A stretch of 64,000 nt of DNA from an uncultured Clostridia bacterium (GTDB lineage: Bacteria > Bacillota > Clostridia > TANB77 > CAG-508): positions 3,976 to 67,975 of the forward strand of contig CAMMZC010000003.1 of NCBI GenBank assembly GCA_946529215.1, given 5' to 3'. Below the pieces are notes generated by a model. It worked only from the letters and a program-made list of their open reading frames with translations. It was not told where the DNA came from and did not search any database. The position numbers and the translations under genes are program-made. This document shows positions 15,201 through 31,047 of this stretch, piece by piece (within the stretch, counting starts at the first letter, position 1; the number at the start of each line of letters is the position of its first letter).

Positions 15201-15273
15201 TTGACATATTGTACATAGAATTTATATACAACTTTTTTTTTAATAATATGATTGTATCAAAACATAAAAAAAA

Positions 15274-15310
15274 TAGCAAGTAATTTTTTATTTTCTTGCT
15301 ACTTTTTTTA
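15274..15310 (-). terminator. Rho-independent terminator after rpmA (bidirectional)
   Basis: A8 run, hairpin tagcaag...cttgcta, then T7 run. Confidence 0.6.
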
Positions 15311-15312
15311 TA

Positions 15313-15594
15313 TTATTGAGCATTAGCTACTTTCTTTTCTTCTACAGGATATACACTAACTTGTTTTTTATCTTTACCTTTTCTTTCAAATTTAACTGTA
15401 CCGTCAACTAATGCATAAAGTGTATCATCACTTCCAATATCTACATTAGTACCTGGATGTACCTTTGTTCCTCTTTGCCTTACTAAGATATTTCCTGCTA
15501 GAACAAATTGACCATCAGCTCTTTTTACACCAAGACGCTTAGATTCACTATCTCTACCGTTATGGCTGCTACCTTGACCTTTTTTATGAGCCAT
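15313..15594 (-). CDS. rpmA: 50S ribosomal protein L27
   Basis: 93 aa. [16 protein letters not shown]... is diagnostic for L27. Confidence 0.95.
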
Positions 15595-15655
15595 GTTTTT
15601 TCACTCCTTCCAGTTTTCGAATTTATATACTTTTAATTTAAATTCTAATTTTTAA

Positions 15656-16075
15656 TTAAGCATTAGCAGTTGCTTTTACTTTAGCTTCTGATTTTTTTGT
15701 ACTAGTTGTTTTTGTTTCAGTTTTTTTTGCTTCAGTTGCTTTAGTTTCTGCTTTTTTTGCTGTTGCTAAATTGATTGATGTAATCTCAACCTTTGTGTAT
15801 GGTTGTCTGTGTCCTTGTTTCTTTCTTTCATTCTTTTTAGCTTTCATTTTGAAAACAATGATTTTTTTGTGTTTACCATGAGAAACAACTTTTCCTTCAA
15901 CCTTTACACCTTTAACATAAGGATTTCCAACTTGTACTTTTCCTTCATCTGAAACTAAAACTACATTGTCGAATGTAACTTTTTTTCCTTCTTCAGCTTC
16001 TAATTTTTCGAAAAATACTACATCTCCTTCTGCTACTTTGTATTGTCTTCCACAGCTTTCAATTATTGCGTACAT
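15656..16075 (-). CDS. rplU: 50S ribosomal protein L21 (with lysine/alanine-rich C-terminal extension)
   Basis: 139 aa. [14 protein letters not shown]... is diagnostic for L21. There is no prp gene between rplU and rpmA. Confidence 0.93.
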
Positions 16076-16170
16076 TTAAAATGCACCTCCCTTTTTCGTA
16101 TACTCGCTAATCCTTAAAAAAGGTAGTTAAATGTTTCATAACTTTTGTGTACCTTGACTAAGCGGATTAC
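16076..16170 (-). promoter_or_regulatory. rplU 5' leader (possible L21 leader regulatory RNA)
   Basis: About 95-nt untranslated leader between the predicted promoter and rplU. Ribosomal-protein leader elements are established in Firmicutes. The structure was not verified. Confidence 0.3.
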
Positions 16171-16178
16171 AATTACTT

Positions 16179-16207
16179 ATTATACAATAATTTTTACATC
16201 TTGTCAA
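16179..16207 (-). promoter_or_regulatory. Consensus sigma-70 promoter for rplU-rpmA
   Basis: Minus strand reads TTGACA (reverse complement of 16202..16207), a 17-nt spacer, then TATAAT (reverse complement of 16179..16184). Confidence 0.65.
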
Positions 16208-16258
16208 TGAATTTTTGGTATATTTTTGAAAAAATTTCATAAAATATTAAAAAAGTAC

Positions 16259-16287
16259 TTGACAATTCATATTAAACATATTATAAT
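16259..16287 (+). promoter_or_regulatory. Consensus sigma-70 promoter for tRNA-fMet
   Basis: TTGACA at 16259..16264, 17-nt spacer, TATAAT at 16282..16287, about 35 nt upstream of the tRNA. Confidence 0.7.
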
Positions 16288-16321
16288 TATATTTGTTTAG
16301 CACAAATATCATTTTAAACAT

Positions 16322-16397
<76 letters not shown>

Positions 16398-16402
16398 AAT
16401 AG

Positions 16403-16440
16403 AAACCTTGAAAACTTACGTTTTCAAGGTTTTTTATTTA
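16403..16440 (+). terminator. Rho-independent terminator after tRNA-fMet
   Basis: Hairpin aaaccttgaaaa-cttacg-ttttcaaggttt, then TTTTATTT. Confidence 0.75.
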
Positions 16441-16499
16441 ATAAAATTGTTAATACATTTGCAAATTTTAGTTAAGATATATATTTATTTTCTGATGCT

Positions 16500-18575
16500 T
16501 TATTGATTTTTTAATTTTAATATGTTGATTGTTTCCATAGTTTCTTTAGACTTCTCGTTATCTTTGCCATATACTTTGCATTGTAATTTGTATAATTTTT
16601 CGTATAACTCTAGCGAATTATTATATTTTTTCATTTTTTTATAAATACTAGCTAAATTATTTAAATTCCTTAATGTATTTGGATGAGTTTTCCCTAATGT
16701 TTCTTCACTCTTTTTATATGCTTCTTTTCCAAATTTTATAGCATTATCATAATTTTCTATATCACTATAATAAGTTGCAAGATTGTTTAACGATGTTAAT
16801 GTGTTAGGATGAGAGTCTCCCAATATTTCCTTTAATTTATTATAAACTATTTCACCTAATTTTACAGCTTTATTATAATTTCCCGTATGATTATAATAAT
16901 AAGAAAGATTATTTAAGCTTCTAAATGTATCTGGATGCTCATATCCTAATGTCTCTTTTCTATTTTTGTATACCTTTTCTCCTAACCTTATTGCTTCTTT
17001 ATAATCTTTTTTATAATTATAATAAATTGCAAGTCTGTTTAAACTTGTTAATGTATTTGGATGAGTTTTGCCTAATGTTTCTTTTCTTTTTTTATACACA
17101 TCTTTTCCGAGTTTTATTGCCATATCATAATTTCCTATATTACTGTAACTGACAGCTAGATTATTTAAACTAGTTAATGTATCAATATGAGTTTCTCCTA
17201 AACTTTCTTCTCTTTTTCTATATACTTCTTCTCCAAGTTTTATTGCTATATCATACTTTCCAATATCATCATAACCTCTCGCTATATTATTTAAACTATC
17301 TAATGTATATAAATTATTCTCTCCTAATACTTCTTTTTGGATTTTATAGCATTCATTGTTTACTTCCAATGCTTTGTTATAATCACCTGTATTTCTATAA
17401 GCAACAGCCAATTTAGTTAAACTTATCAATGTATTTAAATGTTTTTCTCCTAATTCTTTTTTATCTTTTTCATATACCTTTTTTTGCCACTCTAAAGCTT
17501 TTTTATAATCTAATTTTGTTCCTTTACCTTCTTCATATATATATACAAGCTCTTTCATTGCTTCTTTACATTCAAGATTTCCTGATTGTTCAAGCAGTTT
17601 TATTCCTTTTTCTTTATTTACTTCAACATCAATGCCATTTAAATATGCTAATCCTATAAAGTATAAGTGTTTTGGATCATCATTTTCCCTCCATGCTTCA
17701 TTTATTAAATACTTTTTTAAAGATTCACTTAAAAGCTCTGTATCATTTACTTTAATCGGAACAGGTATTTCTTTATATTTTTTTTGTAATTCTTCTTTAC
17801 TTGTATCTACCGCTTCAATTGGAACTATATTTTTACATTCTTTTTTAGCATTTGGATATTCTATTTTTTCCACATAGTTTTCTTCATTTACTAGATTTGG
17901 CGTTACAACCATTGCAAATAATTTACTTTTCTTCAAAGCTTCCTCTATTGACTCATTAAAATCTTGCCCTGGCTTTAAAAACTCATCATACCAAATTGCA
18001 ATATCTCTGCAAAATTCATTTTCATGAATTAAATGCATTATGTTTTCAGCATGTTTTTTGTCTTTTTTTCTATAACTTAAAAATATATATGCATCAAAAG
18101 CTTCTTGAACCTGTTTTCTCAATTCATCACTTACTAATACTGATTCTATATATTCTTTTAATTTACTTTTATATTTTTCTTCTCCAACAACTAACTTACT
18201 TAATGCTTGAAGGTTTCCACATTTTTCGTTAAAGTAGCTATCTATATTTGGCTCCATCATTATTGGCAAAATTGGAATATGATTATCCATTGCATATTGA
18301 AATTCTACTACTCTTGCATCACATTCTTCTGATATAAATTTCCATGTTACAGGTATCACAAATAAGTTTATTTGGCTCAAGTCATCTATAATTTCTCTTG
18401 AATTAATATTTTTATCAGCTTTATAATAAATTACACAATTTCTTATATCTAGAATTTCTTCAGTTATCTCTTCAAAATATTTATCAAAATCATTTTGATA
18501 GCAACAAAAATATACTCTTGATTTATCTTTTAGTTCTTTTCCTCTTGTTTTATATTTTAACTTTATTTCTTCCAT
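16500..18575 (-). CDS. Tandem TIR-like domains + TPR (TPR_10/12-type) repeat protein
   Basis: 691 aa. Residues about 160-300 match the TIR pattern (YIFLSYRKKD...IAIWYDEFLKPGQDF...FAMVVTPNLVNE). Residues about 15-150 are a second TIR/DUF4062-like module (RVYFCCYQNDFDKYF...). The C-terminal half holds about 8 TPR repeats ending in SLNNLA..Y/ LGK.HPNTL. Confidence 0.7.
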   Translation of the reverse strand: MEEIKLKYKTRGKELKDKSRVYFCCYQNDFDKYFEEITEEILDIRNCVIYYKADKNINSREIIDDLSQINLFVIPVTWKFISEECDARVVEFQYAMDNHIPILPIMMEPNIDSYFNEKCGNLQALSKLVVGEEKYKSKLKEYIESVLVSDELRKQVQEAFDAYIFLSYRKKDKKHAENIMHLIHENEFCRDIAIWYDEFLKPGQDFNESIEEALKKSKLFAMVVTPNLVNEENYVEKIEYPNAKKECKNIVPIEAVDTSKEELQKKYKEIPVPIKVNDTELLSESLKKYLINEAWRENDDPKHLYFIGLAYLNGIDVEVNKEKGIKLLEQSGNLECKEAMKELVYIYEEGKGTKLDYKKALEWQKKVYEKDKKELGEKHLNTLISLTKLAVAYRNTGDYNKALEVNNECYKIQKEVLGENNLYTLDSLNNIARGYDDIGKYDIAIKLGEEVYRKREESLGETHIDTLTSLNNLAVSYSNIGNYDMAIKLGKDVYKKRKETLGKTHPNTLTSLNRLAIYYNYKKDYKEAIRLGEKVYKNRKETLGYEHPDTFRSLNNLSYYYNHTGNYNKAVKLGEIVYNKLKEILGDSHPNTLTSLNNLATYYSDIENYDNAIKFGKEAYKKSEETLGKTHPNTLRNLNNLASIYKKMKKYNNSLELYEKLYKLQCKVYGKDNEKSKETMETINILKLKNQ

Positions 18576-18647
18576 AACAATACTCCTATCATAAAAATTC
18601 TCTACTATTTTGTAAATGGTAAATTATTTAAAAAAATAACAATGTTA

Positions 18648-19232
18648 TTAATTAGTGATTGATTTACACATATAAATCCAAATATAGCTCCACAAATTCC
18701 ACCGAATTAAATGAGAATCATGTGCTATATTATCTTTCTTTCTTAGATCTTTTATTTCATCTATAATATAAAATATTATTATTAATACTAGAGTTATTGG
18801 TATTTTATTTTCTGTAATATTAACAAATGCACTTAAAACAGTTAGCATAAAAGATATACAGCTTGCACCTTTAAGCCATTCTTTTCCTTTAATAAAATTG
18901 AAAATTCCAACCACAAATGCAGTTATTAATATCATAATTAATAAATTAACAGAACCGTACTTTTCTTCTATAAGAGGTCCGAGTAATAAAATTTTTAGAT
19001 AATTATTTGAAAGATGACTCCAATCAGCATGTCCAAGTATATGTGTAAATAATCTTATATAAGTTAATGGGTTTAGTAAAGACGCTCTTTCTGTCGAAAA
19101 TACACGTCTTGTAGATTTTCCTTTTGTAATTTTGTCTAATAGAAGCACACCAAGAGATATAAAGAACATTGTAAGAGTTACAACAGCATTATATTGAAAA
19201 TAGTCCATTATATTAATTTCTTGTATATTCAA
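18648..19232 (-). CDS. Rhomboid-family intramembrane protease-like membrane protein
   Basis: 194 aa, multi-TM. GHADWSHLSNN, GASCIS (GxSx) and AHDSHL motifs are rhomboid-like. The ORF-track start is TTG; an alternative ATG is at 19208. Confidence 0.5.
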   Translation of the reverse strand: MNIQEINIMDYFQYNAVVTLTMFFISLGVLLLDKITKGKSTRRVFSTERASLLNPLTYIRLFTHILGHADWSHLSNNYLKILLLGPLIEEKYGSVNLLIMILITAFVVGIFNFIKGKEWLKGASCISFMLTVLSAFVNITENKIPITLVLIIIFYIIDEIKDLRKKDNIAHDSHLIRWNLWSYIWIYMCKSITN

Positions 19233-19543
19233 TGTTATCTCTTCCCTTCTTTATTCACCTTTAATATATTTTTGTATATCTTTAACTGCTTTTTTATTTC
19301 TTCTTATTTCTCTTGCTCTATTGATATCTTCCTTATACAACTCTTTGCATCTTATTTATTCTATCTATAATATCTCTTATTTCTTCTTGGTTATATTCTT
19401 TCATAAACTACTCCTACTCATTTTCAAAATACTGACTAAACTGATTTTTTAATTCGTTTAAATCATCAAAATCTATCACATCTTCTTTAATTTTACCATA
19501 CCTTATGCATAAATGGGCCATGTATATTTTATTACTTTTTTTA

Positions 19544-22500
19544 TTATTCATTTATTTTTCTTATAACTATTTCATCTTTCTCTTTAATAACAAATTCATT
19601 CATTTCTTCTTTATCAATAAATTTATAATAATATTCTCCTAAAGGTAAATTTCTTGCACCTGCTTGGCCATTTTCATTGGTAGTTATTGTTATAATCTCA
19701 TCTTTATTGCTATCAAAAATCCTTATTTTTAAACCTACCTTAGGTTTATTATTTTTATCTTTAACTTGTATTGCAAATCTCCCTTTATAACGCTCTACTT
19801 TTATAACTGGATAAAAAGTTCTATTTTCGTCATCAATAGTAACTCTATATGTTGTTTCATCCATTATATAATTTCCTGTAAGACTAATTAACTTAAATAA
19901 ATACACAAATAAATAGCCATGACGCAAAGTAACATATGCTTTACCATCTCCATCTGTTACTACTTCAGTTAAATAATGTCCTTCTTTATCATAAATATAG
20001 AATGTTCCACCTTGAATTGGGTTACTTGCATCATCAACTAATGTAATAACTAGTTGATTTCTAGGATATATCAATTTAAAATTTGTTACATCTGCACCGT
20101 TAACATATACATATTTTGACATAAGTTCTTTATCCTTGTTATATTTGTCAACTAATGCGATTCTATACATTCCAACAGGAACTTTATAGTAGCTAATTTT
20201 GGCATCAGATCCAACAAATGACTGTCCTAATTTATTATCTGCACTATCATAAAGATTTACTGCATATCCTATAAGTGCATCCTCATTTAAATCAACAAAT
20301 TTTGCTTGAATTTCTCCTAAATAGCCCAGGTTCTTATTTGGAACAAATTCGCTAATATTTTGCTTTTTAACATTTAAAGCTTTAGATGTTTCTTCATCTG
20401 TCAATTCTTTGGCTATTTTAATTAATTCATTTGAAGCAAGATTTTCTGAAATTTCAATTCCAATATCTTTTAAAATTTTTTTTCTTAATTCTATAGCATC
20501 TTTCAATTGTTTTGCTTTAATCATTTCTTGTAAGATTTTGAATTGAAATAACTCATAATCTCCGACATTGTATTTTTCAAACTTTATTTTCTTAAATATT
20601 GCTTGATATTCCACACATTTTTCGTAGTTTTTAATTGCGTCCTTTGGTTTATTATTTTTGCTTTCAACTTCAGCTAATTTAGCATATATTTCGCTTAAAA
20701 AATAATCTCGTATAGCTCTACCATAAATATTATTTTCACTTATAAATTCATTATTATTTTTCACATAAGAAATAGCGTTTTTATATGCACTTGTTGCTTT
20801 TTTAAAATTAGTTTCCTTTAAACTATTTTCAGCTACTTCGTAATATTTAGTTTTCAAATCTTCTATTAATTCGTTATATTTTTCTGTTTGTTTTTTGTAG
20901 TTTTCTATTGCTTGATTTTTTTTATTTATTAAATTTTCAATTTCTTTTTTTGAACTTGTATTGTCTGGTAAAATCACAACTTTATTATTAATAACATCTA
21001 TTTCATCATCATAAAGCAAAATTAAATTTTTATACAAACCATATGTCTTATATATTTCTTCTAATTTATTAAAAGAATCAAACATAACCAAATTATAAAA
21101 TATAGGTTTTTCAAAAAGATTCTCTTTAACATAACATAGAATTTCATTATAAATACCAACAATTTCACTATAATCTTTTTCTACAAAACCAATTTTGTTG
21201 AATTTGTAATTAGCATACTTATAATAAAGGTCTATCTTGATTTCTTGTAAATCATCAAATTTTATAGAAAATTGATGATATTTAAACCATGATTTAATTG
21301 CCTTAAAATAATTATCTACAATTTTATTAAATAAACCAATATTTGTAAAATACTTAAATATTCCATATGAACTTCTAATAATAGAATATACAGCCACATC
21401 ATTTTGATTATATTTATTATTGTTTAAAGTTTTGATTATATCCGAATATATAAATATTGCTTTGTTTAAATTCTTTTTTCCCTCTTTTGTTTTTTCATCA
21501 TCAAAAAATTTTTCAGCTTCACTACAAAGTAAGTCAGCTTTAGCTAAATCTATTTCGGATTTAATAACTGTTAAATCTCTATGATTTTCAATATTTAATT
21601 CTATCTCATAAATATTATATAAAGATTTAATAGTATTTTTTGCTTTTTCAAAGTCACCACTTAATTCATAAAACTTTGATAGCTTTATTGCTAAATTCAT
21701 TGAGTAATCTATATGATTATATTCAGCCCAATCTAAATATTTTTGTATTAATTCTGCAGCTTTGCAATAATCTTCTTGTTTATTACAAAATTCTGCAAAT
21801 ATTAAAAAGGTATCTCTTTGTAAATTGTTATCTTCTTCGACTTTTATTGCTCTTTCATATGAGGCATAGATTTCTTTAACTCTATCTGGATTATTAATAT
21901 CTAAATTATATGTTTCAGCTCTTGATATTAATTCTTGTACAAATTCAGATAATTTCTTTCTTCCACTCTCCTGCTCTACTTCTATATGTACAATATCATC
22001 ATTAATTTCTTCAATATTAAGTATTTCTTTAGCAGATTCTAAGTCACCTCTTTCTAAGCATTTATACGCAGCAATTTGTTTCTTTGTAAGATTATTTTTC
22101 CCCGCTTCTTTAGAAAACTTTTTACTAAAATCAAATATTTGATTTTCTAAATTTTGAATATCTCTTTTATATTTATAATATTTCTCTGTAATTTCATCTA
22201 ATTTATTTGCTTCTTCTTTTGTATATTTTGTTTTATCAGATGATTTTAATTCCAAATATTCATCTTCAATTTTTTCAAATTTTTCTTTTAATTCAATTAA
22301 CTGCTCATTCTTAAAAAACATCGGAATTTTATCTAATACTAATATTTCCTCGCCATCTATACAAATGCTTCCATCAATTATTTCAATTGTTACATTTGAT
22401 GTTTTCATGTCATCGATTTTATTATTAATTTCATATTTAATACGATAAATATCAATATATTCACCATAGTAATGTTGCAAATTATCTCCAACATATTTAA

Positions 22501-23341
22501 TAAACTCATCTGCTTTTTTAGTTCTCTCTTTTACATCTTTTCTAACAAATGGTCTTAAATCAAGACTCTCATTTTCAATAAAATATTTATATGCATTATC
22601 AAAGTCTTTATATATTTTTTCGTCAATGTCTTTACCAACTATTAAAAATAATCCTGAACAATCTTTCAGTTGTTTTTCTGTTAGAGAAGTTATATCTTCA
22701 TTAGTAATAAAATTAAAATATACACGATGCTTTTTATATTTATCATTTATGTTCCTAATAAAATTACTAATTGCATATTTATCATTTTCTATATCTTTAT
22801 TTCCTTCAAGAAAAATAAAGTTATATTTTTTTAATTCTTCTTTTTCTAAATCTTCTTCATCAATTTTTTCAATACTATTATTTATTATTTCTTTAACCTT
22901 ATTATATAATTCTTCTTCTTCATCATATTCTTTTATTTTATTTTTAAATCCACCATTTAATACATCATTACCAAGTTTTTCTCTAAATTTAGCTACTGAA
23001 TCATCAGCATCACATTTTTTAAAGAATATAAACCTTCTTATACCTTTAACTTCTTTAGATACATCATATTCTTCAACAGTATATTCTCCTGCTCTTTTCC
23101 CAATTAGCAATATCATAACATCAGATTCTCTTAATTTTTGATTATATTGCTCTTGTTTTCTGCCTTTTACCATAGAATTATCTTCAAATTCACATTCAAA
23201 CAAATTAATCCTAATACCTTTTTCTAATAAGTCATCTTGCATTCTTCTTACTAAGTCGCCAATTTTATTTCTTTCAGTTTCAAATTCATTAATAGAAGAA
23301 GCTAAAAATATTTTTATTTCATTTTTATTATAACTTGGCAT
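19544..23341 (-). CDS. Large cytoplasmic multi-domain protein: two DUF4062/TIR-like modules + coiled-coil/TPR + C-terminal Cna-B/carboxypeptidase-regulatory-like beta-sandwich repeats
   Basis: The N-terminus IKIFLASSINEFETERNKIGDL...SDVMILLIGKRAGE fits the DUF4062 pattern. A second similar module follows (YNFIFLEGNKD...CSGLFLIVGKDIDE). The middle has TPR-like helical repeats. The C-terminal about 250 aa has repeats like TLVDDASNPIQGGTFYIYDKEGHY and GLKIRIFDSNKDE. No signal peptide. Likely start is ATG at 23341 (RBS GAGGA); the ORF-track start at 23356 is GTG. Confidence 0.6.
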   Translation of the reverse strand: MPSYNKNEIKIFLASSINEFETERNKIGDLVRRMQDDLLEKGIRINLFECEFEDNSMVKGRKQEQYNQKLRESDVMILLIGKRAGEYTVEEYDVSKEVKGIRRFIFFKKCDADDSVAKFREKLGNDVLNGGFKNKIKEYDEEEELYNKVKEIINNSIEKIDEEDLEKEELKKYNFIFLEGNKDIENDKYAISNFIRNINDKYKKHRVYFNFITNEDITSLTEKQLKDCSGLFLIVGKDIDEKIYKDFDNAYKYFIENESLDLRPFVRKDVKERTKKADEFIKYVGDNLQHYYGEYIDIYRIKYEINNKIDDMKTSNVTIEIIDGSICIDGEEILVLDKIPMFFKNEQLIELKEKFEKIEDEYLELKSSDKTKYTKEEANKLDEITEKYYKYKRDIQNLENQIFDFSKKFSKEAGKNNLTKKQIAAYKCLERGDLESAKEILNIEEINDDIVHIEVEQESGRKKLSEFVQELISRAETYNLDINNPDRVKEIYASYERAIKVEEDNNLQRDTFLIFAEFCNKQEDYCKAAELIQKYLDWAEYNHIDYSMNLAIKLSKFYELSGDFEKAKNTIKSLYNIYEIELNIENHRDLTVIKSEIDLAKADLLCSEAEKFFDDEKTKEGKKNLNKAIFIYSDIIKTLNNNKYNQNDVAVYSIIRSSYGIFKYFTNIGLFNKIVDNYFKAIKSWFKYHQFSIKFDDLQEIKIDLYYKYANYKFNKIGFVEKDYSEIVGIYNEILCYVKENLFEKPIFYNLVMFDSFNKLEEIYKTYGLYKNLILLYDDEIDVINNKVVILPDNTSSKKEIENLINKKNQAIENYKKQTEKYNELIEDLKTKYYEVAENSLKETNFKKATSAYKNAISYVKNNNEFISENNIYGRAIRDYFLSEIYAKLAEVESKNNKPKDAIKNYEKCVEYQAIFKKIKFEKYNVGDYELFQFKILQEMIKAKQLKDAIELRKKILKDIGIEISENLASNELIKIAKELTDEETSKALNVKKQNISEFVPNKNLGYLGEIQAKFVDLNEDALIGYAVNLYDSADNKLGQSFVGSDAKISYYKVPVGMYRIALVDKYNKDKELMSKYVYVNGADVTNFKLIYPRNQLVITLVDDASNPIQGGTFYIYDKEGHYLTEVVTDGDGKAYVTLRHGYLFVYLFKLISLTGNYIMDETTYRVTIDDENRTFYPVIKVERYKGRFAIQVKDKNNKPKVGLKIRIFDSNKDEIITITTNENGQAGARNLPLGEYYYKFIDKEEMNEFVIKEKDEIVIRKINE

Positions 23342-23383
23342 TCTTATTTTCCTCACTTATCTTATTACTTTTTATATATTACC

Positions 23384-25288
23384 CTATTCTGTAAAATCAT
23401 TTAACATCATTTTTACTATATCGTAATCACTTGATTTTAAATCTTTATTAATTCCCATACTTTGTAATTGATAAGAAACATTATCTAATTCTTCAAAAGG
23501 CACAAGAGCTGGGTGTCTTCTTCCTAAATAATCTCTGTGATCATTTAATATAGGATAATATCTTCTTACATCATCAATATTGGCTTTTATATACCCTATT
23601 GTTCTCATGTAGGCATTCCATCTATCATGTTCATTTTTTGCAAGCATTTCTTTTAATTCTTCTGTATAAATTTCTCTAAACATTTTCAAATTTTCTTTTA
23701 GATTTTTAGAATATTTTTCTCCTAATACAGAATACAATTTATATTTTACATGAAGTGCACTTGCTCTTGATGAACGTTTATTATATTCATTTAAATAATA
23801 ATCTGCAGAACTTCCACGATATGCTTTATGTATTTTTTCTCCAATTTTCTCAATTTCAGAATCAACTATTTTATTATCAAAATACATATCTTTTACACTG
23901 CCAAAAGCATTTATATCATATGTTGTTTCTTTTTCATTAATAAGCTTGTTTACTTGTTCTTTTTTATATTCATTTTGAATCCAAATATTTATTATTGGCT
24001 TTCTCTCATAATTTCTAATAAATAATCTTCTTAAATCTATTGCTGTATCTAAATTTTTACTATCTGTCTCCATTGATACTAATATATAATTTATGTCATT
24101 TACCTGTTCTATAGCCTCTATTGCTTTTGGAGATTTTATATCTGCATTAACAAATGTAATATCATAATTATTTAAAATGTCAGGTGTTTCAATTTCAAAA
24201 TTTTTCTTAATTTCGTCTGCTTTTATATCAATTACTAATGCTTTAAATCTATAACCTATCATCATTCCACACCATAAAGCATCTTTTAAAAATTCTTTTC
24301 CTACTTGTCCACAACCAACAATAAGCAATGATATAACATTATCAATTGCTCCTTCATAAATTGGCTTTTTATCTAATAAATTGAAAATTGCTCTTTCTTT
24401 TTCATTTACAATTTCTACATTAACAAACTCTTTATCAGATAAATCTAATTTTATAAGTTCTTGTTCGATTTTATCTTCAACTTCTGCATCTACAACATCT
24501 TTATCTGATAATCCTAATTTTGTCAGTATTTTTTTTCTTTCTTCTAATTTTATTTTATTAATAATATCTCTATTTGCCGAGTCTAAAACTATTGGCGCTT
24601 CTTCAGTATTGTTTATAACATATACTTTAATCTTTTGGTTTTTGTATTTTTCCATAATTTCTAACGCATCATTAAGATTTTGTTCTTCATTTTCAGAAAT
24701 CATATATATAGTTATATTATTATCATAATTATTTAAATTAATTTCGCTCATTTTTTCGGAAAGCTTTATAGATTTAAAAGAATCTGTTTTACCATTTCTT
24801 TTATATTCTACATTAGTAAATATAACTGCATTATTATTGTTCACATAACCTTCTGCAATCATAACAGATTTCTCATTCATTTCTGAAAAAAAGTATAAAT
24901 TTTTATTTTTTAATCTCTTAATTTTAATACCTTTAAATAAATCGTTTAAAATAGCAATTAAAGTACTTACAGTAAAAAAAGGCAAAGCAATTAAAAAGAT
25001 ATTTATCCAAATAAAATATCCAATTCCAAAAGCACTATGTGTATTAATTTTTGATAAAACATCTATATCTTCGTTTAGTGTTATACTTTTTAATGCATAA
25101 TAAAATGTATTAGTTACTTTGATGGCGATATTACTATAATCTAAAAGTGGAAACACCAAAATTCCCAAACAAATAAGTCCTATTCCCATTATTATAAAAA
25201 ATCTATATTTAGTGTCTATTTTGTAATTTTTTAATAATACAAATCCAATTATTGTTACCACAATACTTAAACTAAAAGTTATTACCAT
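23384..25288 (-). CDS. Membrane protein with 2-3 N-terminal TM helices, Rossmann (TrkA_N/RCK-like) domain and C-terminal RyR domain
   Basis: 634 aa. N-terminal hydrophobic helices. VGCGQVGKEF is a GxGxxG motif. C-terminal ...HDRWNAYMRTIGY...RRHPALVPFEELD resembles the RyR (PF02026) pattern. The start codon abuts the stop of the upstream RyR gene. Confidence 0.55.
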   Translation of the reverse strand: MVITFSLSIVVTIIGFVLLKNYKIDTKYRFFIIMGIGLICLGILVFPLLDYSNIAIKVTNTFYYALKSITLNEDIDVLSKINTHSAFGIGYFIWINIFLIALPFFTVSTLIAILNDLFKGIKIKRLKNKNLYFFSEMNEKSVMIAEGYVNNNNAVIFTNVEYKRNGKTDSFKSIKLSEKMSEINLNNYDNNITIYMISENEEQNLNDALEIMEKYKNQKIKVYVINNTEEAPIVLDSANRDIINKIKLEERKKILTKLGLSDKDVVDAEVEDKIEQELIKLDLSDKEFVNVEIVNEKERAIFNLLDKKPIYEGAIDNVISLLIVGCGQVGKEFLKDALWCGMMIGYRFKALVIDIKADEIKKNFEIETPDILNNYDITFVNADIKSPKAIEAIEQVNDINYILVSMETDSKNLDTAIDLRRLFIRNYERKPIINIWIQNEYKKEQVNKLINEKETTYDINAFGSVKDMYFDNKIVDSEIEKIGEKIHKAYRGSSADYYLNEYNKRSSRASALHVKYKLYSVLGEKYSKNLKENLKMFREIYTEELKEMLAKNEHDRWNAYMRTIGYIKANIDDVRRYYPILNDHRDYLGRRHPALVPFEELDNVSYQLQSMGINKDLKSSDYDIVKMMLNDFTE

Positions 25289-25579
25289 TTATAGTTCCTC
25301 CTTAATTATTTTAAATCCAAGTTTTTGTATTAATTTCAATGTTTCAATAGCTGTATTTCTATCATATTCTTTTTCGCTTTCTGGCAAACTTTCATAAGAT
25401 ACTAAACAAGGTGTAGTTTTCAATTTATCATCTCGTACTATTCCATATTTCCAACCTTCATTTATTCTTCCTATAGCCCATACTTCATGTGTATTCTTAG
25501 CTAGTTTCTCCGCTAGTTTTAAAATTTCCTCACTTAAAATAACATCCTTTGTATCTACAGGTTTTGGTTGATAGTTCAT
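25289..25579 (-). CDS. RyR (ryanodine-receptor repeat) domain protein
   Basis: 96 aa. LAKNTHEVWAIGRINEGWKYGIVRDDKLKTTPCLVSYESLPESEKEYDRNTAIETLKLI matches the RyR-domain consensus (W...GW.YG..RD......P.LVPYE.L.E.EKE.DR). Confidence 0.7.
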   Translation of the reverse strand: MNYQPKPVDTKDVILSEEILKLAEKLAKNTHEVWAIGRINEGWKYGIVRDDKLKTTPCLVSYESLPESEKEYDRNTAIETLKLIQKLGFKIIKEEL

Positions 25580-25904
25580 ATTTTTCCTCCTTTTTTAACT
25601 TTCTTCATAAAACTTAAATTCTTCTTCATATGTGTGTAAAAAAAATTATATATGTAAGTGGATTTAAAAGTAATTCTTCATCGTCTGTTACATCTTCATC
25701 ATATTTTTGTCTATTATATCATAAAATTTCATATTTGTCTTGTTTTAAAGTCAAAAAATAAGTTTTTTATCTTATACTTTCACAAACTCTCTCACAACTA
25801 TTTGGCTAAAAAAAGGGCAAAATGTTTACATTCACACACCATTTATAAAAAATATATTGATATTTCAGTAAATTTTGGGTTATTTGTCTTGTCCTCATCA
25901 ACCA

Positions 25905-25948
25905 AATAAAAGCCCTGAAAATATTAATTTTTCAAGGCTTATTTTTTT
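25905..25948. terminator. Bidirectional terminator hairpin overlapping stop of DUF1189-like gene
   Basis: agccctgaaaa-tattaatt-ttttcaaggct followed by T7 on the plus strand and a U-rich stretch on the minus strand. Confidence 0.5.
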
Positions 25949-26819
25949 CATTTCTTTTTTGTTTCCACAAGATTAAATACAAATAAACAAATATTATTCC
26001 AATACTTATTATATCCATAATAGAAATTCTAAATTTTGTAAAATAACTCATTATCATATATGTAACAAAAACTATCATAGACAAGGTAGAAGCGTAAATT
26101 GTATTCATTAATGATTCTTTATAAGTCCATTTGCTTTTTAAGATTTTAGTAACAAGCCACAAACCTACAGAAATTAATGAAATATATATAACATACATCA
26201 GAGCTATACTTCCGAAATATACAACAAAATATTGTGCTATATAATATGAAAATGAAGTTCTTTTTCTTAAATATTCTAAAACATCTTTTTTGCCATATTC
26301 ATAGTTTAAATCTTTTATAAAATTTGAAGAAATCTCAGAATATTTTTGTGATACAAGTCCTTCTTCATTTTTGTTTTCATGATTGTATTTATTTGAGATT
26401 AAAACATATTCTTCTTTTAGAAATATAATAACATTATTCCTATCTGTTGCTAGATCTTTATATTGTTCTATCGCTTCTTGTTTTTCAAGAAGCGGATTTA
26501 TAACAATTACATTCCTAAAAAATTCAATTATTTTTTCATCATCTAATATAGTTGCCTCTTCGTTTTCAAGTGATAAAATATTTTCTTTAAATTTAATTTC
26601 AGGTAATTTTTCATCTAAATAATTAATTGAATTTTTTACAACATCTAATTGTAAAAAAGTTGCGATTATAGCTACAATTAAAGCTAATATACATACTACA
26701 TAGAAGAAATACTTTATTGCCTTGCTAATACCTTGTTTTCTGAGTTCCTTATATTTGCTTGGTTTTGCAATTGAATACCATATTTTCTTAAAAAAATTTA
26801 TTTTTATATTTTCTTCCAA
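25932..26819 (-). CDS. DUF1189-like membrane protein
   Basis: 295 aa. N-terminus FFKKIWYSIAKPSKYKELRKQGISKAIKYFFYVV plus multiple TM helices resembles the DUF1189 family. Confidence 0.45.
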   Translation of the reverse strand: MEENIKINFFKKIWYSIAKPSKYKELRKQGISKAIKYFFYVVCILALIVAIIATFLQLDVVKNSINYLDEKLPEIKFKENILSLENEEATILDDEKIIEFFRNVIVINPLLEKQEAIEQYKDLATDRNNVIIFLKEEYVLISNKYNHENKNEEGLVSQKYSEISSNFIKDLNYEYGKKDVLEYLRKRTSFSYYIAQYFVVYFGSIALMYVIYISLISVGLWLVTKILKSKWTYKESLMNTIYASTLSMIVFVTYMIMSYFTKFRISIMDIISIGIIFVYLYLILWKQKRNEKNKP

Positions 26820-26984
26820 ATCAGATCATTCCTCTCTTAAATACTTATAGTTGTTTAATTCTTCTTTTCTTAAACTAAATCATTATTTTAAATACACATA
26901 TATAATAGCACTTGAATAAAAAAAATGCAATCAAAACTTTAAAAATAAAAAGATTTTTATGTAATCAAATTTTTAAGCGCAAAA

Positions 26985-27195
26985 AATCCCCGCTGTAGCC
27001 GTAACTTGTGCCAAAATTTTTAACAACCTGCTCTCACAAACAGGTGGGTGCCTACCTAAATACTCATGGGCTTCTTACTACTATTATATTGCAAAAAGTG
27101 TAAGCTTGCACGCCATATTCAGAGTTCAGCCCCTCTTTAAACTTGTAGGTTCTAAAAATTCTGCAATACGCACTATGCAGGGGTTTTGTTTAATT
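26985..27195 (+). ncRNA. Candidate structured small RNA of unknown class (6S-like or other)
   Basis: About 210-bp non-coding segment with clearly higher GC than its flanks, lying between two minus-strand genes. The 5' end CCCCGCTGTAG can pair with the 3' end CTATGCAGGGG, followed by TTTT. Internal hairpins include GGTGGG-TG-CCTACC and CCTAC...GTAGG. GU pairs favour the plus strand. Confidence 0.3.
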
Positions 27196-27427
27196 ATTTT
27201 ATTGTTATATTTATATTATCATATAATAGCATTTTTTTCAAATAATTTAAGGTGCTAAATTGCTTTATTAATGTTTTTTATTATGGATTAATCTTATTCT
27301 TATTAATTTATTCTCTTTTAATCTTCATTTTTTGCCACTTTATATTTTTAATTTTTCACTAGTATTATAGCTAAGAATCTTTTATTTTGCTTGAGTTGAA
27401 AATTAAAGCATTATATGAAAATATATC

Positions 27428-29746
27428 TTAAATTCTACTAGAATTGCAAGAAAAATATATAACTTGATATTTTTTCGTAAATTCTTGTAAAATTTCAAGT
27501 GCTTTTGAGGTTTTTGATTCATCTAAATTTACAAATGGGTCATCAAGCACAACAAATGGTGTTTCGCCACTAAACAAAGCATCTATTAAACTAAATCTCA
27601 TACAGATATAAATTAAGTCTTTGTATCCAGTGCTAAAAGTTTTTATTTCTTTTTGAGAACCATTTACTTCTATTTTTACATCTAAATTTGTATCAACAGA
27701 AGTTTTTAATTCTTTGGTATCAATCAAAGATAAATATTTATTAAATCCAATAACCATACTTTTTAGATAATTTGATGAAAAGTTTTCTTTTGATGTTTTT
27801 AAAAGTTCTTCTGTTTTGTTTAAAATTTTATATTTTTCTTCTAAATTGCTTATTTCTCCTTTTAAATTTTCTATATCACTTTCTAAATATTCACTTTCAT
27901 CAATTCTATTTTCTAAAACCTCTATTTGATTTTTTATTTGATTTTTTTCGTCATTTAGCATATCAATTTTGTTATTTAAAACATCTATTTTATGCTTGAT
28001 TTCTTCTTCAGAAGCGGATATTTCTTCTATATTTTTAAATTCCTCAACATTATTTTCTTTTTCATATTTTTCTTTTTTGTCAATTATATCTTTTAGTTGA
28101 TTTTTAGATTCTTCAAATTGATTTATTTTTATTTTCAAATCTTGTATTAGGTCTGTATATGATTTGTCTATACTTATATAATATGTTTTAAAGTCATCTT
28201 CTATTTCATTTTTTAATTTTTCAAGATTAATTTTTAAATTTTGTAAAGACACATCTTTTGATATTTTGTTTTTTAATAGTGTTTTATAATTACTGTATTC
28301 TGTTTTTAAACTAGTTAAATCTAAAATCTTATTTGAACTTTCTGCTGAATAATATTGTTTTAAGAAATTTTCTACATTATGGTTTATTTCTTCTTTTTTA
28401 TTTTGCATATCTTCTATTTCTTTTTGAAGATTTAAAATTTCTTTGCTCAAGCTAGAAATTTTACGTCTTTTGTTTTTAGATAAAAAACTGAATAAACCAA
28501 AAAGTATACCTGTAGAAATTAGACTTATTCCTGCTATTTTTTGTATATTTGTAATTATCAAACCACTGCCTATTATTATTAATAATAAAGATAATATTAT
28601 TGTAATTAACACCTTTTTACGTTTTTTATTAACTATGTCTAAATCATTTTGTTTTTGTTCTTTCTCTTTTTTCTTTGTATTGACTTTTTCTTCTATATCT
28701 TGTATTTGCGAATATTCAAAAATATTTTTATCTATTTCTTCTATTGAAATATTTCCATTTTTATATTTATTTTGCAGTACTTCTAATTCTTTTGCTTCTT
28801 CATCTGTTATTTTGCAATTTGATATTTCTAATTTTGTTTTTTCTATTTCATAATTTTTATTAGCTAGATTTTCTAAAAATGAATTTGTAGGAATCCCATT
28901 TGAGAAAAATTTTTCAAAATTTTTATATTCTTCTTGGTAAGAAGAATATTTAGTTAGTATTGAGTCATAAACTTCTTTTTTGGCTTTAACTCTATCTTGT
29001 TCAATCTTTTTTTTAAGTAGTTTTTGTTCCTCAATTCTTTGATTTTCTAAGGTATGTATTTCATTTATTTTTTCTTCTAATTGATTTTTTCTTGTTTCAA
29101 AATTTTCAATATCTATTTTGCTATTTTCAAATTTTCTTTGTAAATCATATAATTTAGTCTTTTTTTCGTCTATTAGTCCACCTTGTCCTCTATCTTTTTT
29201 ATATATTTTTTTTGCTTCATTGAGTTTCTTTAATGCTTCTTCTGATGTGTTTATATCATTATCACTTTCTAACATATTTGTAAGTTTAGCATTAATGCTG
29301 TCTTCCATCTCAATCTGTATTTGCCCTTGTGGTATGTATGTACTTCTTTCATAAGCACTTTTGTTTATTTTAAATATTTCTTCTCCGATATTTTCTGAAT
29401 AATCTTTGCTCTCCAAATTTGTTTCTAAATTATATAATTTAAATGTATCATCAGTAGCTTTTTTTCCAAATGTTCTTTCTATTCTATATTTTTTGCTATT
29501 TATTTCAAATTCAATACTTCCGCCATATATTCCTCCTTGCCATGGAATATATCTTTTTCTATCTGATTTTTCAAATCTTGCATTTGCTTGAGTATCTAAC
29601 CCATAAAACATAGATTTAATAAATGTTGCAAAAGTTGTTTTTCCAAATCCATTATCTTGTTTTATTGTATTTAATCCATCTTGAAAATCATAACTAAAAT
29701 CTTGCAATTTACCAAAATTTTGTATATGGCATTTTAATAATTTCAT
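27428..29746 (-). CDS. YhaN/SbcC-like AAA ATPase with long coiled coils and central TM segment
   Basis: 772 aa. N-terminal Walker A GFGKTTF. Extensive coiled coil. Internal hydrophobic stretch VLITIILSLLLIIIGSGLII. C-terminal VVLDDPFVNLDE Walker B/D-loop. Confidence 0.7.
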   Translation of the reverse strand: MKLLKCHIQNFGKLQDFSYDFQDGLNTIKQDNGFGKTTFATFIKSMFYGLDTQANARFEKSDRKRYIPWQGGIYGGSIEFEINSKKYRIERTFGKKATDDTFKLYNLETNLESKDYSENIGEEIFKINKSAYERSTYIPQGQIQIEMEDSINAKLTNMLESDNDINTSEEALKKLNEAKKIYKKDRGQGGLIDEKKTKLYDLQRKFENSKIDIENFETRKNQLEEKINEIHTLENQRIEEQKLLKKKIEQDRVKAKKEVYDSILTKYSSYQEEYKNFEKFFSNGIPTNSFLENLANKNYEIEKTKLEISNCKITDEEAKELEVLQNKYKNGNISIEEIDKNIFEYSQIQDIEEKVNTKKKEKEQKQNDLDIVNKKRKKVLITIILSLLLIIIGSGLIITNIQKIAGISLISTGILFGLFSFLSKNKRRKISSLSKEILNLQKEIEDMQNKKEEINHNVENFLKQYYSAESSNKILDLTSLKTEYSNYKTLLKNKISKDVSLQNLKINLEKLKNEIEDDFKTYYISIDKSYTDLIQDLKIKINQFEESKNQLKDIIDKKEKYEKENNVEEFKNIEEISASEEEIKHKIDVLNNKIDMLNDEKNQIKNQIEVLENRIDESEYLESDIENLKGEISNLEEKYKILNKTEELLKTSKENFSSNYLKSMVIGFNKYLSLIDTKELKTSVDTNLDVKIEVNGSQKEIKTFSTGYKDLIYICMRFSLIDALFSGETPFVVLDDPFVNLDESKTSKALEILQEFTKKYQVIYFSCNSSRI

Positions 29747-29764
29747 GTTAATCCTCCATTTGTA

Positions 29765-30850
29765 TTATAATAAATCTTCTCCTGAAAGTGCTTTAATTCC
29801 AGTGCTTATAACTTTATTTTTTTCTTCCTCTGTTAAATCTTTTTGATCTAATACAAGCCTTATAAATTCACCTTTTAAAGAAATATCATTTTGAAATTTC
29901 ATATAATCTATTTTGATATTTGGCTTATCTTCGATTTTTAGAAAAAAGAAATCTGATTCAAATTTTTTTGTTAAATAATCTATATCTCTTTCTTCTCCTA
30001 TCTCAATATCTCCGCCTAAAACTAATTTTACTAAGCTTGTTCCAGGAATACCCTTTAATTTTTCTGCTATGGATTGTTCAATTTCGTTATTTTCCTTTAA
30101 TCCTGTTAAGTCTGCATGAACTTCATATAATGTTCTATACGAAAAAGGTATAAACTCAGTTTTTATCTTATTATCTTCTATATTTAGTAGCACGAATCCC
30201 TTTTCTCCACATTCATCAAATCCTCTTCCTTCTAGACAACCAGAATAACAATATACTCCCCTATTGTCTAATTTTTCTTTTTTGTATGAATGAATATGTC
30301 CTAATGCAAGATAATCTATATTTTTGTTTTTAAGCTCTTTTAAATTTATTATCTCAGCTTTATCTTTTATAGATGTTTCTGACTCTTGACCATGCATAAC
30401 AACTATGTTTAACTTATTTTTTTCTAGAAATAAAGAATTATATATTTCATAATTTGGAGTATTTCCAAACTCTATTCCAGAAATTGTTATATTGCCATAT
30501 TCATAAGTTTGCCAATTATTTCTGTTAAATGTTTTTAAATTTGATGGTAATTCTTCATCTTCATCTATAAATCCGGCTTCATCATGATTTCCTTTTAAAT
30601 AGACAAAATCTATTTCAGGATTAGATATAATAGCATTTTTAACAGTCTTTTTAGCTTTAACAGTAACTGCTTTTTTATCAAATAAATCTCCTGCAATTAT
30701 TATTATTTTAACATCATTTTCTTTTGCATATTGTACCATTCTATCGAATGTAAGCAAAATTTCATTTTTTCTTTCTCTTGCTTTTTCTTTATCTAAGTTT
30801 GTTTCCATTTTAGAATCAAGATGTAAATCACTACAATGAATTATTTTCAT
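29765..30850 (-). CDS. Metallophosphoesterase, SbcD/YhaO-like DNA repair exonuclease
   Basis: MKIIHCSDLHLD... calcineurin-like phosphoesterase motifs (GDLFD, GNHD, GHIH). Start taken at ATG 30850; the ORF-track N-terminal extension was rejected. Confidence 0.78.
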   Translation of the reverse strand: MKIIHCSDLHLDSKMETNLDKEKARERKNEILLTFDRMVQYAKENDVKIIIIAGDLFDKKAVTVKAKKTVKNAIISNPEIDFVYLKGNHDEAGFIDEDEELPSNLKTFNRNNWQTYEYGNITISGIEFGNTPNYEIYNSLFLEKNKLNIVVMHGQESETSIKDKAEIINLKELKNKNIDYLALGHIHSYKKEKLDNRGVYCYSGCLEGRGFDECGEKGFVLLNIEDNKIKTEFIPFSYRTLYEVHADLTGLKENNEIEQSIAEKLKGIPGTSLVKLVLGGDIEIGEERDIDYLTKKFESDFFFLKIEDKPNIKIDYMKFQNDISLKGEFIRLVLDQKDLTEEEKNKVISTGIKALSGEDLL

Positions 30851-31047
30851 ATTTACTGACATTCCTTTCCTGCAAGGCACAAAATTTGATTAAAATAACT
30901 GCTTTTTCAGTTATTTTCAAACTTGCCTTGCTTTTCTAGAAGTTGACTAAAAGAAATTCTGCCCAATTTCTTTTTCAAAATATATCCTAACAAAAAAACA
31001 AAAAAATGTCAATAGTTTTTCGAACATTTTTTTGTTTTCTTTTTTTA

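Follow-up and report, generated by a model that had tools for sequence, protein, structure and literature searches.

The window analysed here is a stretch of 64,000 nucleotides (nt) from an uncultured Clostridia bacterium (GenBank assembly GCA_946529215.1, contig CAMMZC010000003.1). Two adjoining genes lie on its minus strand. The first encodes a 96-aa protein with a domain of the ryanodine receptor type (RyR), and the second encodes a 634-aa membrane protein, referred to below as the core. What the computation shows for this pair and its relatives is the identity of the domains, their folds, the conservation of pocket residues, the coupling of the genes, and the co-occurrence statistics. Judged by computation only, there is about an even chance that the pair forms the conserved centre of an anti-phage cassette that is TIR-coupled and Thoeris-like. 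In it, an ADP-ribose (ADPR)-type nucleotide would be sensed by RyR domains, and the core would act as a membrane effector. The two genes and the signal between them are as follows.

25289..25579, minus strand: open reading frame (ORF) of 96 aa, the small RyR gene, intact
23384..25288, minus strand: ORF of 634 aa, the core gene
25297..25301, minus strand: GGAGG, the Shine-Dalgarno sequence of the 634-aa gene, within the final small-gene codons and 8 nt upstream of the ATG

The sequence-only reading had described a translationally coupled pair, and the coordinates bear this out. The TAA of the small gene (25291-25289) is followed at once by the ATG of the core (25288-25286), with a 0-nt gap, and the GGAGG (25301-25297) does lie within the end of the upstream gene. 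The small gene has a strong Shine-Dalgarno sequence of its own, AAGGAGG, 6 nt 5' of its start. Forty-three related loci, given L numbers here, were taken from metagenome contigs and metagenome-assembled genomes (MAGs); dereplication at 90% core identity left 32 lineages. All the loci come from uncultured gut and rumen Firmicutes-type bacteria (Erysipelotrichaceae, Clostridia, Bacilli, and “Tenericutes”). The RyR/core junction is also tight in L001, L003, L017, L019, L029, L031, L048, and L053: the genes overlap by 1 nt at one extreme and are 7 nt apart at the other. Of the 32 dereplicated loci, 15 have a canonical RyR domain together with the core, so the pair recurs outside the window.

The small protein matches Pfam RyR (PF02026) with 119.7 bits (E=6.4e-35) over profile positions 1-89 of 91, the gathering cut-off being 27.4 bits. 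It also matches 3NRT, the solved stand-alone RyR protein of Bacteroides thetaiotaomicron (phmmer E=1.5e-32). These matches identify the 96-aa protein as a stand-alone canonical RyR domain of the Repeat12 type. Compared with the RyR modules of relatives, its ratio of nonsynonymous to synonymous substitution rates (dN/dS) is 0.10-0.29, and the ratio for the core is 0.26. Judged by these ratios, both genes are under purifying selection and the small gene is not decaying. Scans with NCBIfam and PADLOC gave no match for either protein. A Foldseek search against viral models gave nothing significant; RyR-named phage proteins were among the top five, with E values of 1.3-1.9.

An AlphaFold2 model of the core, built from 33 homologues, has a mean predicted local distance difference test score (pLDDT) of 86 and a predicted template modelling score (pTM) of 0.74. 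It consists of an N-terminal helical membrane region, two alpha/beta domains, and an all-helical C-terminal domain. These parts map to the window as follows.

24917..25288, minus strand: membrane region, aa 1-124, with three hydrophobic helices and one amphipathic helix
24389..24916, minus strand: first RCK-like alpha/beta domain, aa 125-300, with a degenerate glycine motif replaced by FSEMNEKS
23879..24361, minus strand: second RCK/KTN domain, aa 310-470, with GxGxxG and D354, a predicted adenine-nucleotide (NAD/ATP-type) site
23387..23875, minus strand: C-terminal helical domain, aa 472-634, of which the final ~95 aa have the RyR fold

The transmembrane (TM) helices that had been noted in the larger protein are present as three hydrophobic segments at about aa 1-21, 27-50, and 86-116. 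A basic stretch, KGIKIKRLKNKN, follows TM3 on the cytoplasmic side. In the alignment of the 33 homologues, no K+ selectivity-filter motif is conserved in the TM region, and the identification of the core as a K+ channel was dropped for this reason. The GxGxxG motif was also read correctly. It corresponds to G325-x-G327-x-x-G330, and these three glycines and D354 are invariant across the 33 homologues. The nucleotide-binding Rossmann domain is present as had been proposed; it is not single, since the fold is a tandem RCK/KTN pair that resembles the gating rings of TrkA, KtrA, and GsuK. A Pfam TrkA_N (PF02254) search, which had been suggested as a check, gave no match to the window core at E<=0.1. 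One homologue, P0024, carries a precomputed PF02254 match. The first RCK-like domain holds a charged, repeat-like insertion of ~35 aa (…LGLSDKDVVDAEVEDKIEQELIKLDLSDKEF…) at aa ~243-283 (window 24440-24560). It occurs in the window protein and its closest relative, P0002, and in no other homologue, and it is modelled as a lower-confidence helix.

Both proteins had been said to carry RyR domains. This is clear for the small one. For the core it holds by fold and profile homology and not by Pfam score, as the core reaches 17 bits (E=0.007) against PF02026, which is under the cut-off. A profile-profile alignment of the core C-terminus with canonical RyR gives a probability of 91% (E=9e-7), and it pairs NEHDRW with NTHEVW and RRHPALVPFEEL with KTTPCLVSYESL. 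A narrow local RyR hidden Markov model (HMM) missed the core, which came to light only with hhalign, a broader HMM, and a domain model. The broader HMM matches the C-termini of many core-family members at 1e-5 to 1e-15. The distant members P0222, P0200, P0204, and P0227 score above the Pfam RyR cut-off. Sequence profiles and the model together indicate that the C-terminal domain of the core is a divergent RyR fold. A PDB profile search with the whole core family put designed trefoil-knot proteins at the top. This match was judged spurious, and an RyR1 chimera was reached with only E=0.006.

The statement that the function of bacterial RyR domains is essentially unknown is out of date, as two 2026 preprints describe phage RyR proteins that bind or cleave the cyclic ADP-ribose (cADPR) isomers made by TIR proteins. 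RyDEP, the anti-Thoeris RyR-domain protein gp78 of mycobacteriophage DyoEdafos, binds and cleaves 2'/3'cADPR through H75, W78, H100, and D117 (PMC13232231). Six of eight tested homologues bind signals without cleavage, and the two that were characterised are nanomolar sponges (PMC13232231). RyR Tad, gp68 of Pectobacterium phage CB1, binds 1''-3' gcADPR with a Kd of 43 nM through H129/W132, K147/H154, and K170/D171 (doi 10.64898/2026.06.04.730250). Binding of 2'/3'cADPR, cADPR, and ADPR is established for RyR domains of phage proteins, and Repeat12 of the animal ryanodine receptor binds ATP/ADP (PMC13232231; doi 10.64898/2026.06.04.730250). The stand-alone RyR domains are homodimeric in 3NRT, RyDEP, and RyR Tad, and host RyR proteins are not discussed in either preprint (PMC13232231; doi 10.64898/2026.06.04.730250).

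This pocket can be followed in part in the window proteins. In an alignment with gp68, every sequence has the His and the Trp, which are H31/W34 in the small protein and H554/W557 in the core. The basic residue of the pocket is kept in both (R49 and R585). The His-Pro is kept in the core as H592-P593, and the window's small protein has Thr-Pro there (T56). The pocket Asp is kept in the small protein as D73. Across the 33 core homologues that were aligned, H554, W557, H592, and P593 do not vary, and the position equivalent to R585 is likewise invariant.

The core family is large, and its members are typically about 590 aa long. A word-indexed search found 79 close core homologues, and an exhaustive profile search gave 960 clusters at E<=1e-30 and 2295 at E<=1e-10. 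A look-up of encoding contigs returned no record for the window protein itself. The way in which RyR accompanies the core is variable. A free canonical RyR protein of 93-122 aa is found up- or downstream of the core in 10 of the 32 loci, and RyR stands at the C-terminus of an Abi_2 protein (HEPN, with intact RxxxxH) beside the core in three lineages. In L025 (7899-10061, 720 aa) and L026 (7941-10049, 702 aa), RyR is fused to the C-terminus of the core itself. These two cores end in a tandem [RyR-like][RyR], as in animal Repeat12, and an extra C-terminal RyR is also found in the distant members P0200, P0204, and P0227. L053 has a core with an overlapping 92-aa RyR gene, as a bare two-gene unit among housekeeping genes. 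The free form of ~95 aa is the commonest state in the family (10 lineages plus L053).

Other small genes are also found beside the core. A family of 111-115 aa with a Cys-rich C-terminus (c18) immediately precedes the core in L022, L024, and L026, and it also occurs in L031 and L034. The conserved neighbours c18 (111 aa), c4 (179 aa), c11 (160 aa), c3, and c7 showed no RyR similarity by hhalign and had no Pfam match.

The genes that adjoin the core can indicate what it works with. In an unbiased Pfam census, the 62 genes that immediately flank the 32 cores were compared with 93 control genes at positions +-4/5. The immediate neighbours include RyR (13), TIR_2 (10), TIR-STING (3), DUF4062 (4), and Abi_2 (7), whereas the controls include no TIR, no RyR, and two DUF4062, the rest being housekeeping. 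TIR-type genes thus make up 17 of the 62 neighbours versus 2 of the 93 controls (Fisher p=3e-6). A link with TIR genes had been offered as something to check, and it is strongly supported. A TIR-type gene is immediately adjacent in 17 of the 32 loci and within two genes in 21, and in the distant member L052 a TIR_2 gene is two genes from the core. Eight architectures are represented: TIR-WD40, TIR-MORN, TIR-NB-ARC-TPR, TIR-NPHP3_N-TPR, TIR-prokSTING, TIR-methyltransferase, TIR-TPR, and DUF4062-TPR-SpaA. Eight architectures next to one conserved core is the pattern expected if the sensors vary and the effector stays constant. The DUF4062 domain is a TIR-like NADase that mediates anti-phage defence in Swarozyc and Evangelion (doi 10.64898/2026.05.01.722283, 10.64898/2026.06.25.731849). 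An Abi_2 domain whose RxxxxH motif is intact is fused or adjacent to RyR or the core in L001-5, L011, L013, L019, L023, L025-27, and L048. The flanks of most loci are housekeeping genes, as in the window, and not defence islands.

The TIR-prokaryotic STING genes are directly upstream of the core in L028 (6874-7983), L036 (6754-7866), and L037 (6758-7894). No CD-NTase or other CBASS gene was found near them. The neighbours in these three loci include an aquaporin, a YetF-like protein, and a phosphodiesterase.

In the window itself, the pair is the start of an island in which the order is small RyR gene, core gene, DUF4062 gene, rhomboid gene, and TIR_2-TPR gene. Its other features are listed here.

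25910..25940, minus strand: hairpin resembling a terminator, where the upstream DUF1189 gene ends, with a 12-bp stem and a T-run, a pattern match only; the upstream boundary of the island
25713..25741, minus strand: AAGACA-17-TATAAT with TG, a promoter-like site within the 352 nt of non-coding DNA 5' of the small gene
19544..23341, minus strand: gene of the 1265-aa DUF4062 protein, 42 nt after the core stop; it starts at ATG 23341 and not GTG 23356, as in the public gene call
18648..19232, minus strand: rhomboid protease gene, syntenic in L001/L003, possibly a mere conserved flank and of uncertain membership in the cassette
16500..18575, minus strand: gene of a 691-aa TIR-like + TIR_2 + 7x TPR protein, the second TIR-type gene of the island
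16403..16432, minus strand: terminator-like hairpin after the TIR-TPR gene, a pattern match

The first three genes are operon-like, with gaps of 0 nt and 42 nt. Terminator-like hairpins stand only at the two ends of 16403-25940, and no further site of this kind was found on the minus strand between 16403..16432 and 25910. Promoter-like matches in the AT-rich region before the small gene are no commoner than in shuffled sequence, so the site at 25713..25741 is weak evidence of a promoter. The island has a GC content of 24% compared with 27% in its surroundings, and it is flanked by housekeeping genes (ribosomal L21, PGI, DUF1189, an SbcCD-like pair, and NrdD). The SbcCD-like pair (27428-30880, minus strand) encodes an SbcD/Mre11-like phosphoesterase of 371 aa and then a 772-aa SbcC/Rad50-like ATPase. 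Midway along its coiled coil (~aa 388-435) the ATPase has two hydrophobic helices, and it gives weak PADLOC LmuB matches (E=6.5e-14).

The 1265-aa protein passes the Pfam DUF4062 cut-off (27.2 versus 24.7 bits). Its T-V-E-E-Y motif is a candidate counterpart of the catalytic Glu of DUF4062 (KpSwz E97). It has a second, degenerate TIR-like domain, then TPRs and C-terminal Ig-like domains of the SpaA/prealbumin/CarboxypepD_reg type. Such Ig-like domains normally occur on cell-surface proteins, and the domain mix is therefore odd for a cytoplasmic sensor. The DUF4062 gene is a conserved downstream partner in L001-5, L013, L027, and L048; in L003 and L013 it is split into genes of 156-157 aa and 1180 aa. 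The 691-aa protein has an apparent TIR-like domain at aa ~18-110, a Pfam-scoring TIR_2 at aa 164-257, and then seven TPR_12 repeats. It reaches 268 bits against the NCBIfam FxSxx-COOH-system TPR model, under the cut-off of 300, and it matches PADLOC ThsB only weakly (E 2e-4 to 1e-3).

A possible mechanism can be put together for this cassette. A neighbouring TIR-type protein would sense infection through its repeat or STAND domains and turn NAD+ into an ADPR-type product, either ADPR or a cADPR isomer. The candidate signal makers are the DUF4062-TPR and TIR-TPR proteins in the window and the TIR-WD40, TIR-MORN, TIR-STAND-TPR, and TIR-STING proteins elsewhere. The RyR domains would be the receptors for this nucleotide. 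The 634-aa protein would be the effector, with its three TM helices and a cytoplasmic tandem RCK/KTN module akin to the rings that gate Trk, Ktr, GsuK, and MthK. This module may supply a second adenine-nucleotide site (GxGxxG...D) beside the C-terminal divergent RyR domain. Ligand binding would then open or rearrange the membrane part, ion gradients would collapse, and the infection would be aborted. The ligand, the direction of signalling, the channel activity, the RyR-RyR pairing, and the defence phenotype are what we infer from the computed results, and the name “ligand-gated membrane effector” that the sequence-only reading gave to the 634-aa protein is of the same kind.

The small protein also has a place in this mechanism. 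Translational coupling would cause the free 96-aa protein to be made in fixed proportion to the core. It could then pair with the single RyR-like repeat of the core to give a two-repeat, Repeat12-like module. The repeated fusion of canonical RyR to the core or to Abi_2 suggests that RyR physically works with them, and a heterodimeric sensor is favoured by the tandem [RyR-like][RyR] of L025/L026, which mirrors the two repeats of Repeat12. In relatives where RyR is fused to the Abi_2/HEPN RNase, the same pairing may bring in or co-activate that second effector. It is put forward only tentatively that the core family is a prokaryotic channel gated by ADPR or cADPR isomers, with a receptor made, like Repeat12, of the divergent repeat of the core and a free or fused canonical RyR.

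Several points weigh against the proposal of a TIR-coupled cassette. There is no TIR-type gene nearby in the L006 group, L018, L035, L041, L047, and L053; therefore, the pair can exist without a TIR in cis. DUF4062, TIR-STAND, and TIR-STING proteins have been described as terminal NAD+-depleting effectors and self-sufficient defences, not as signal makers. The adjacency might thus mean another relation, for example a response to NAD+ loss or ADPR, or regulation. The pockets of the two window RyR domains each miss one characterised residue. T56 replaces the phosphate-contacting His in the small protein, and the aligned Asp position is not conserved in the core, where D621 is invariant but stands elsewhere and has no proven equivalence. 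The core RyR domain is under the Pfam cut-off, and the membrane part, lacking a selectivity filter, resembles no known pore.

The main alternative to a structural partnership of the free RyR protein with the core is that it is a buffer or off-switch of the host. It would be a sponge or a RyDEP-like glycosidase in the same cassette that sets the threshold and prevents self-killing. Phage RyR proteins do act as sponges or as a glycosidase, the small protein keeps the equivalents of the RyDEP catalytic pair (H31 and D73) and would be made stoichiometrically with the effector, and the stand-alone RyR domains of 3NRT, RyDEP, and RyR Tad are homodimers. However, the fusions of RyR to the core C-terminus (L025, L026, P0200, P0204) and to Abi_2 better fit a sensor or adaptor than a competitor, and T56 takes the place of the phosphate-contacting His in the window lineage. 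A buffer seems unlikely.

A second alternative removes defence from the picture. The core would be a housekeeping nucleotide-regulated transport protein of the Trk/Ktr/Kef type, RyR would be its ATP/ADP-sensing subunit, and the TIR neighbours would be coincidental. An RCK/KTN fold with a GxGxxG site is typical of K+ transport regulators, and the binding of ATP/ADP by animal Repeat12, the housekeeping flanks of most loci, and the loci without TIR would all agree with this. Coincidence is hard to reconcile with the enrichment of TIR-type genes in eight unrelated architectures, and with the recurrent linkage and fusion to the Abi_2/HEPN abortive-infection domain. In addition, the family is patchily distributed, its context is variable, and it has no K+ pore signature. 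A housekeeping role appears distinctly improbable.

The closest relatives of the window differ from it at the small gene. They have an Abi_2-RyR fusion of 384-387 aa in this position, with core identities to the window of 82% (L048), 76% (L001), and 59-60% (L003/L013/L027). The first residue of the window protein coincides with an internal Met of the fusion. DNA identity between the window and L048 is 88% and ends 5 nt before the small-gene ATG. Nothing Abi_2-like is left in 25585-25931, and an Abi_2 domain is absent from window positions 15001-31000. Since the closest relatives carry the fusion, homology stops just before the ATG, and no Abi_2 remnant is found, comparison of the sequences indicates that the free 96-aa gene is a derived state, reached by loss or replacement of the Abi_2 part. 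L001 and L003 also carry two conserved genes and a sigma-70-type factor between the DUF4062 and rhomboid genes (L001:13778-16113, L003:9875-11992). The two genes belong to families c7 (~190-240 aa) and c3 (~340-380 aa). The window has lost all three, and only a remnant of ~125 nt is left (19341-19464).

It is very improbable that the 96-aa gene is the leftover of a deleted Abi_2-RyR gene in a crippled or decaying cassette, as these losses could suggest, because its ORF is intact with a strong Shine-Dalgarno sequence, its dN/dS (0.1-0.29) is similar to that of the core, the free form is the commonest in the family, and the coupling to the core is preserved. The Abi_2-RyR genes of L001 (6843-7997), L003 (2761-3921), and L048 (1954-3117) have SD-like AAGGAG/GAAGG sequences 8-13 nt before the internal Met. 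Translation might therefore also start within these genes and yield a free RyR module; alternatively, each may have arisen recently by the joining of two genes.

The proposed TIR-coupled cassette can be compared with systems that are already described. The small protein is homologous to the stand-alone B. thetaiotaomicron RyR protein (3NRT, 4N05, 6UAG), which comes from structural genomics. Unlike that protein, the window RyR is translationally coupled to a membrane RCK protein, and elsewhere it is fused with it or with Abi_2. RyDEP and RyR Tad belong to the same Pfam family and fold, and their H..W adenine/ribose pocket is conserved in the window proteins. They are phage counter-defence proteins. 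The window gene lies in a chromosome among housekeeping genes, is coupled to a membrane protein of the host, and stands on the side of the TIR; in addition, the small protein has T56 where they have a phosphate-contacting His. No sign that the window RyR gene is phage-encoded was found in its chromosomal context, and the same RyR/core arrangement is present in many MAG chromosomes. RyR genes 61% identical to the window's occur on two short contigs deposited as “UNVERIFIED” “Bacteriophage sp.”, which were not used as evidence of phage origin. The one inspected, MT837259.1 (L049), is a human-faeces contig (“UNVERIFIED: Bacteriophage sp.”) that looks more like a Bacteroides-type chromosomal fragment than a phage. 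Its 97-aa RyR protein (11061-11354) is beside a RidA-like gene, with no core gene, and for this reason it was not taken as evidence.

The likeness to Thoeris (types I-XI) is in the placing of a TIR gene beside a nucleotide-sensing, cell-killing effector, with a variable TIR and an exchangeable effector. Type II, with its Macro + TM effector, and type X, whose “ion channel” effectors are represented by IMG 8023446598, 2611628341, and 643630790, are the nearest. The window has the TIR-type neighbours expected of Thoeris, with the DUF4062 gene 42 nt downstream of the core and the TIR_2-TPR gene at 16500-18575. Here, however, the sensing domain would be RyR (plus KTN) and not SLOG, Macro, DUF6650, or TPR, and neither RyR protein matches the ThsA/ThsB-type models of PADLOC. 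The TIR partners are large repeat, STAND, or STING proteins, kinds that a systematic Thoeris survey deliberately discarded; the survey explicitly removed TIRs in CBASS and Avs contexts, and the terms RyR, TrkA, and RCK are absent from it and its tables (doi 10.64898/2025.12.03.692087). A tblastn search of plasmids with a type X TIR reached type II (Macro) operons only and no “ion channel” (ThsK) effector.

The core can likewise be set beside the RCK/KTN modules of TrkA, KtrA, GsuK, MthK, and CASTOR. It differs from them by a 3-TM region with no K+ selectivity filter, a first domain that has lost the glycine motif, an appended RyR domain, and the lack of a Pfam TrkA_N match. With Repeat12 of the animal ryanodine receptor it shares the domain, and the tandem [RyR-like][RyR] in L025, L026, P0200, and P0204 echoes the two-repeat R12. 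The bacterial protein has only ~600 aa and an unrelated membrane part, and the likeness does not imply that the architecture as a whole has a common ancestor. Abi_2 (AbiD/AbiF-type HEPN, PF07751) is fused or adjacent to the RyR/core pair in relatives, whereas the window has no Abi_2 part. The DUF4062 gene of the window recalls Swarozyc and Evangelion by its Pfam match; however, its product has TPRs and a SpaA-like auxiliary region, and it belongs to a multigene cassette and not to a single-gene system.

The domains themselves are already known, as is the logic of a TIR enzyme with a nucleotide-sensing effector. Use of RyR on the host side, an RCK-membrane effector, and a partnership with TIR-STAND, TIR-STING, and DUF4062 proteins are undescribed in the literature searched. 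Functional data on RyR domains in the bacterial world come only from the two 2026 preprints, in which phage proteins neutralise TIR signals. If the proposal is true, RyR would be a new receptor domain and the core a new effector class for TIR-based immunity. It would also explain the phage RyR decoys, because they would mimic the host receptor, and it would take in partners of the TIR-STAND and TIR-STING kinds, which earlier surveys had set aside as “terminal NADases”. In animals, the link of cADPR to ryanodine receptor gating has long been debated. The bacterial pair would provide a simple system for asking whether RyR repeats are true receptors of cyclic ADP-ribose-type messengers that control a membrane channel. 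If the core is a channel gated by ADPR or cADPR isomers, the family would be a bacterial counterpart, and possibly an evolutionary source, of the animal cADPR-RyR axis.

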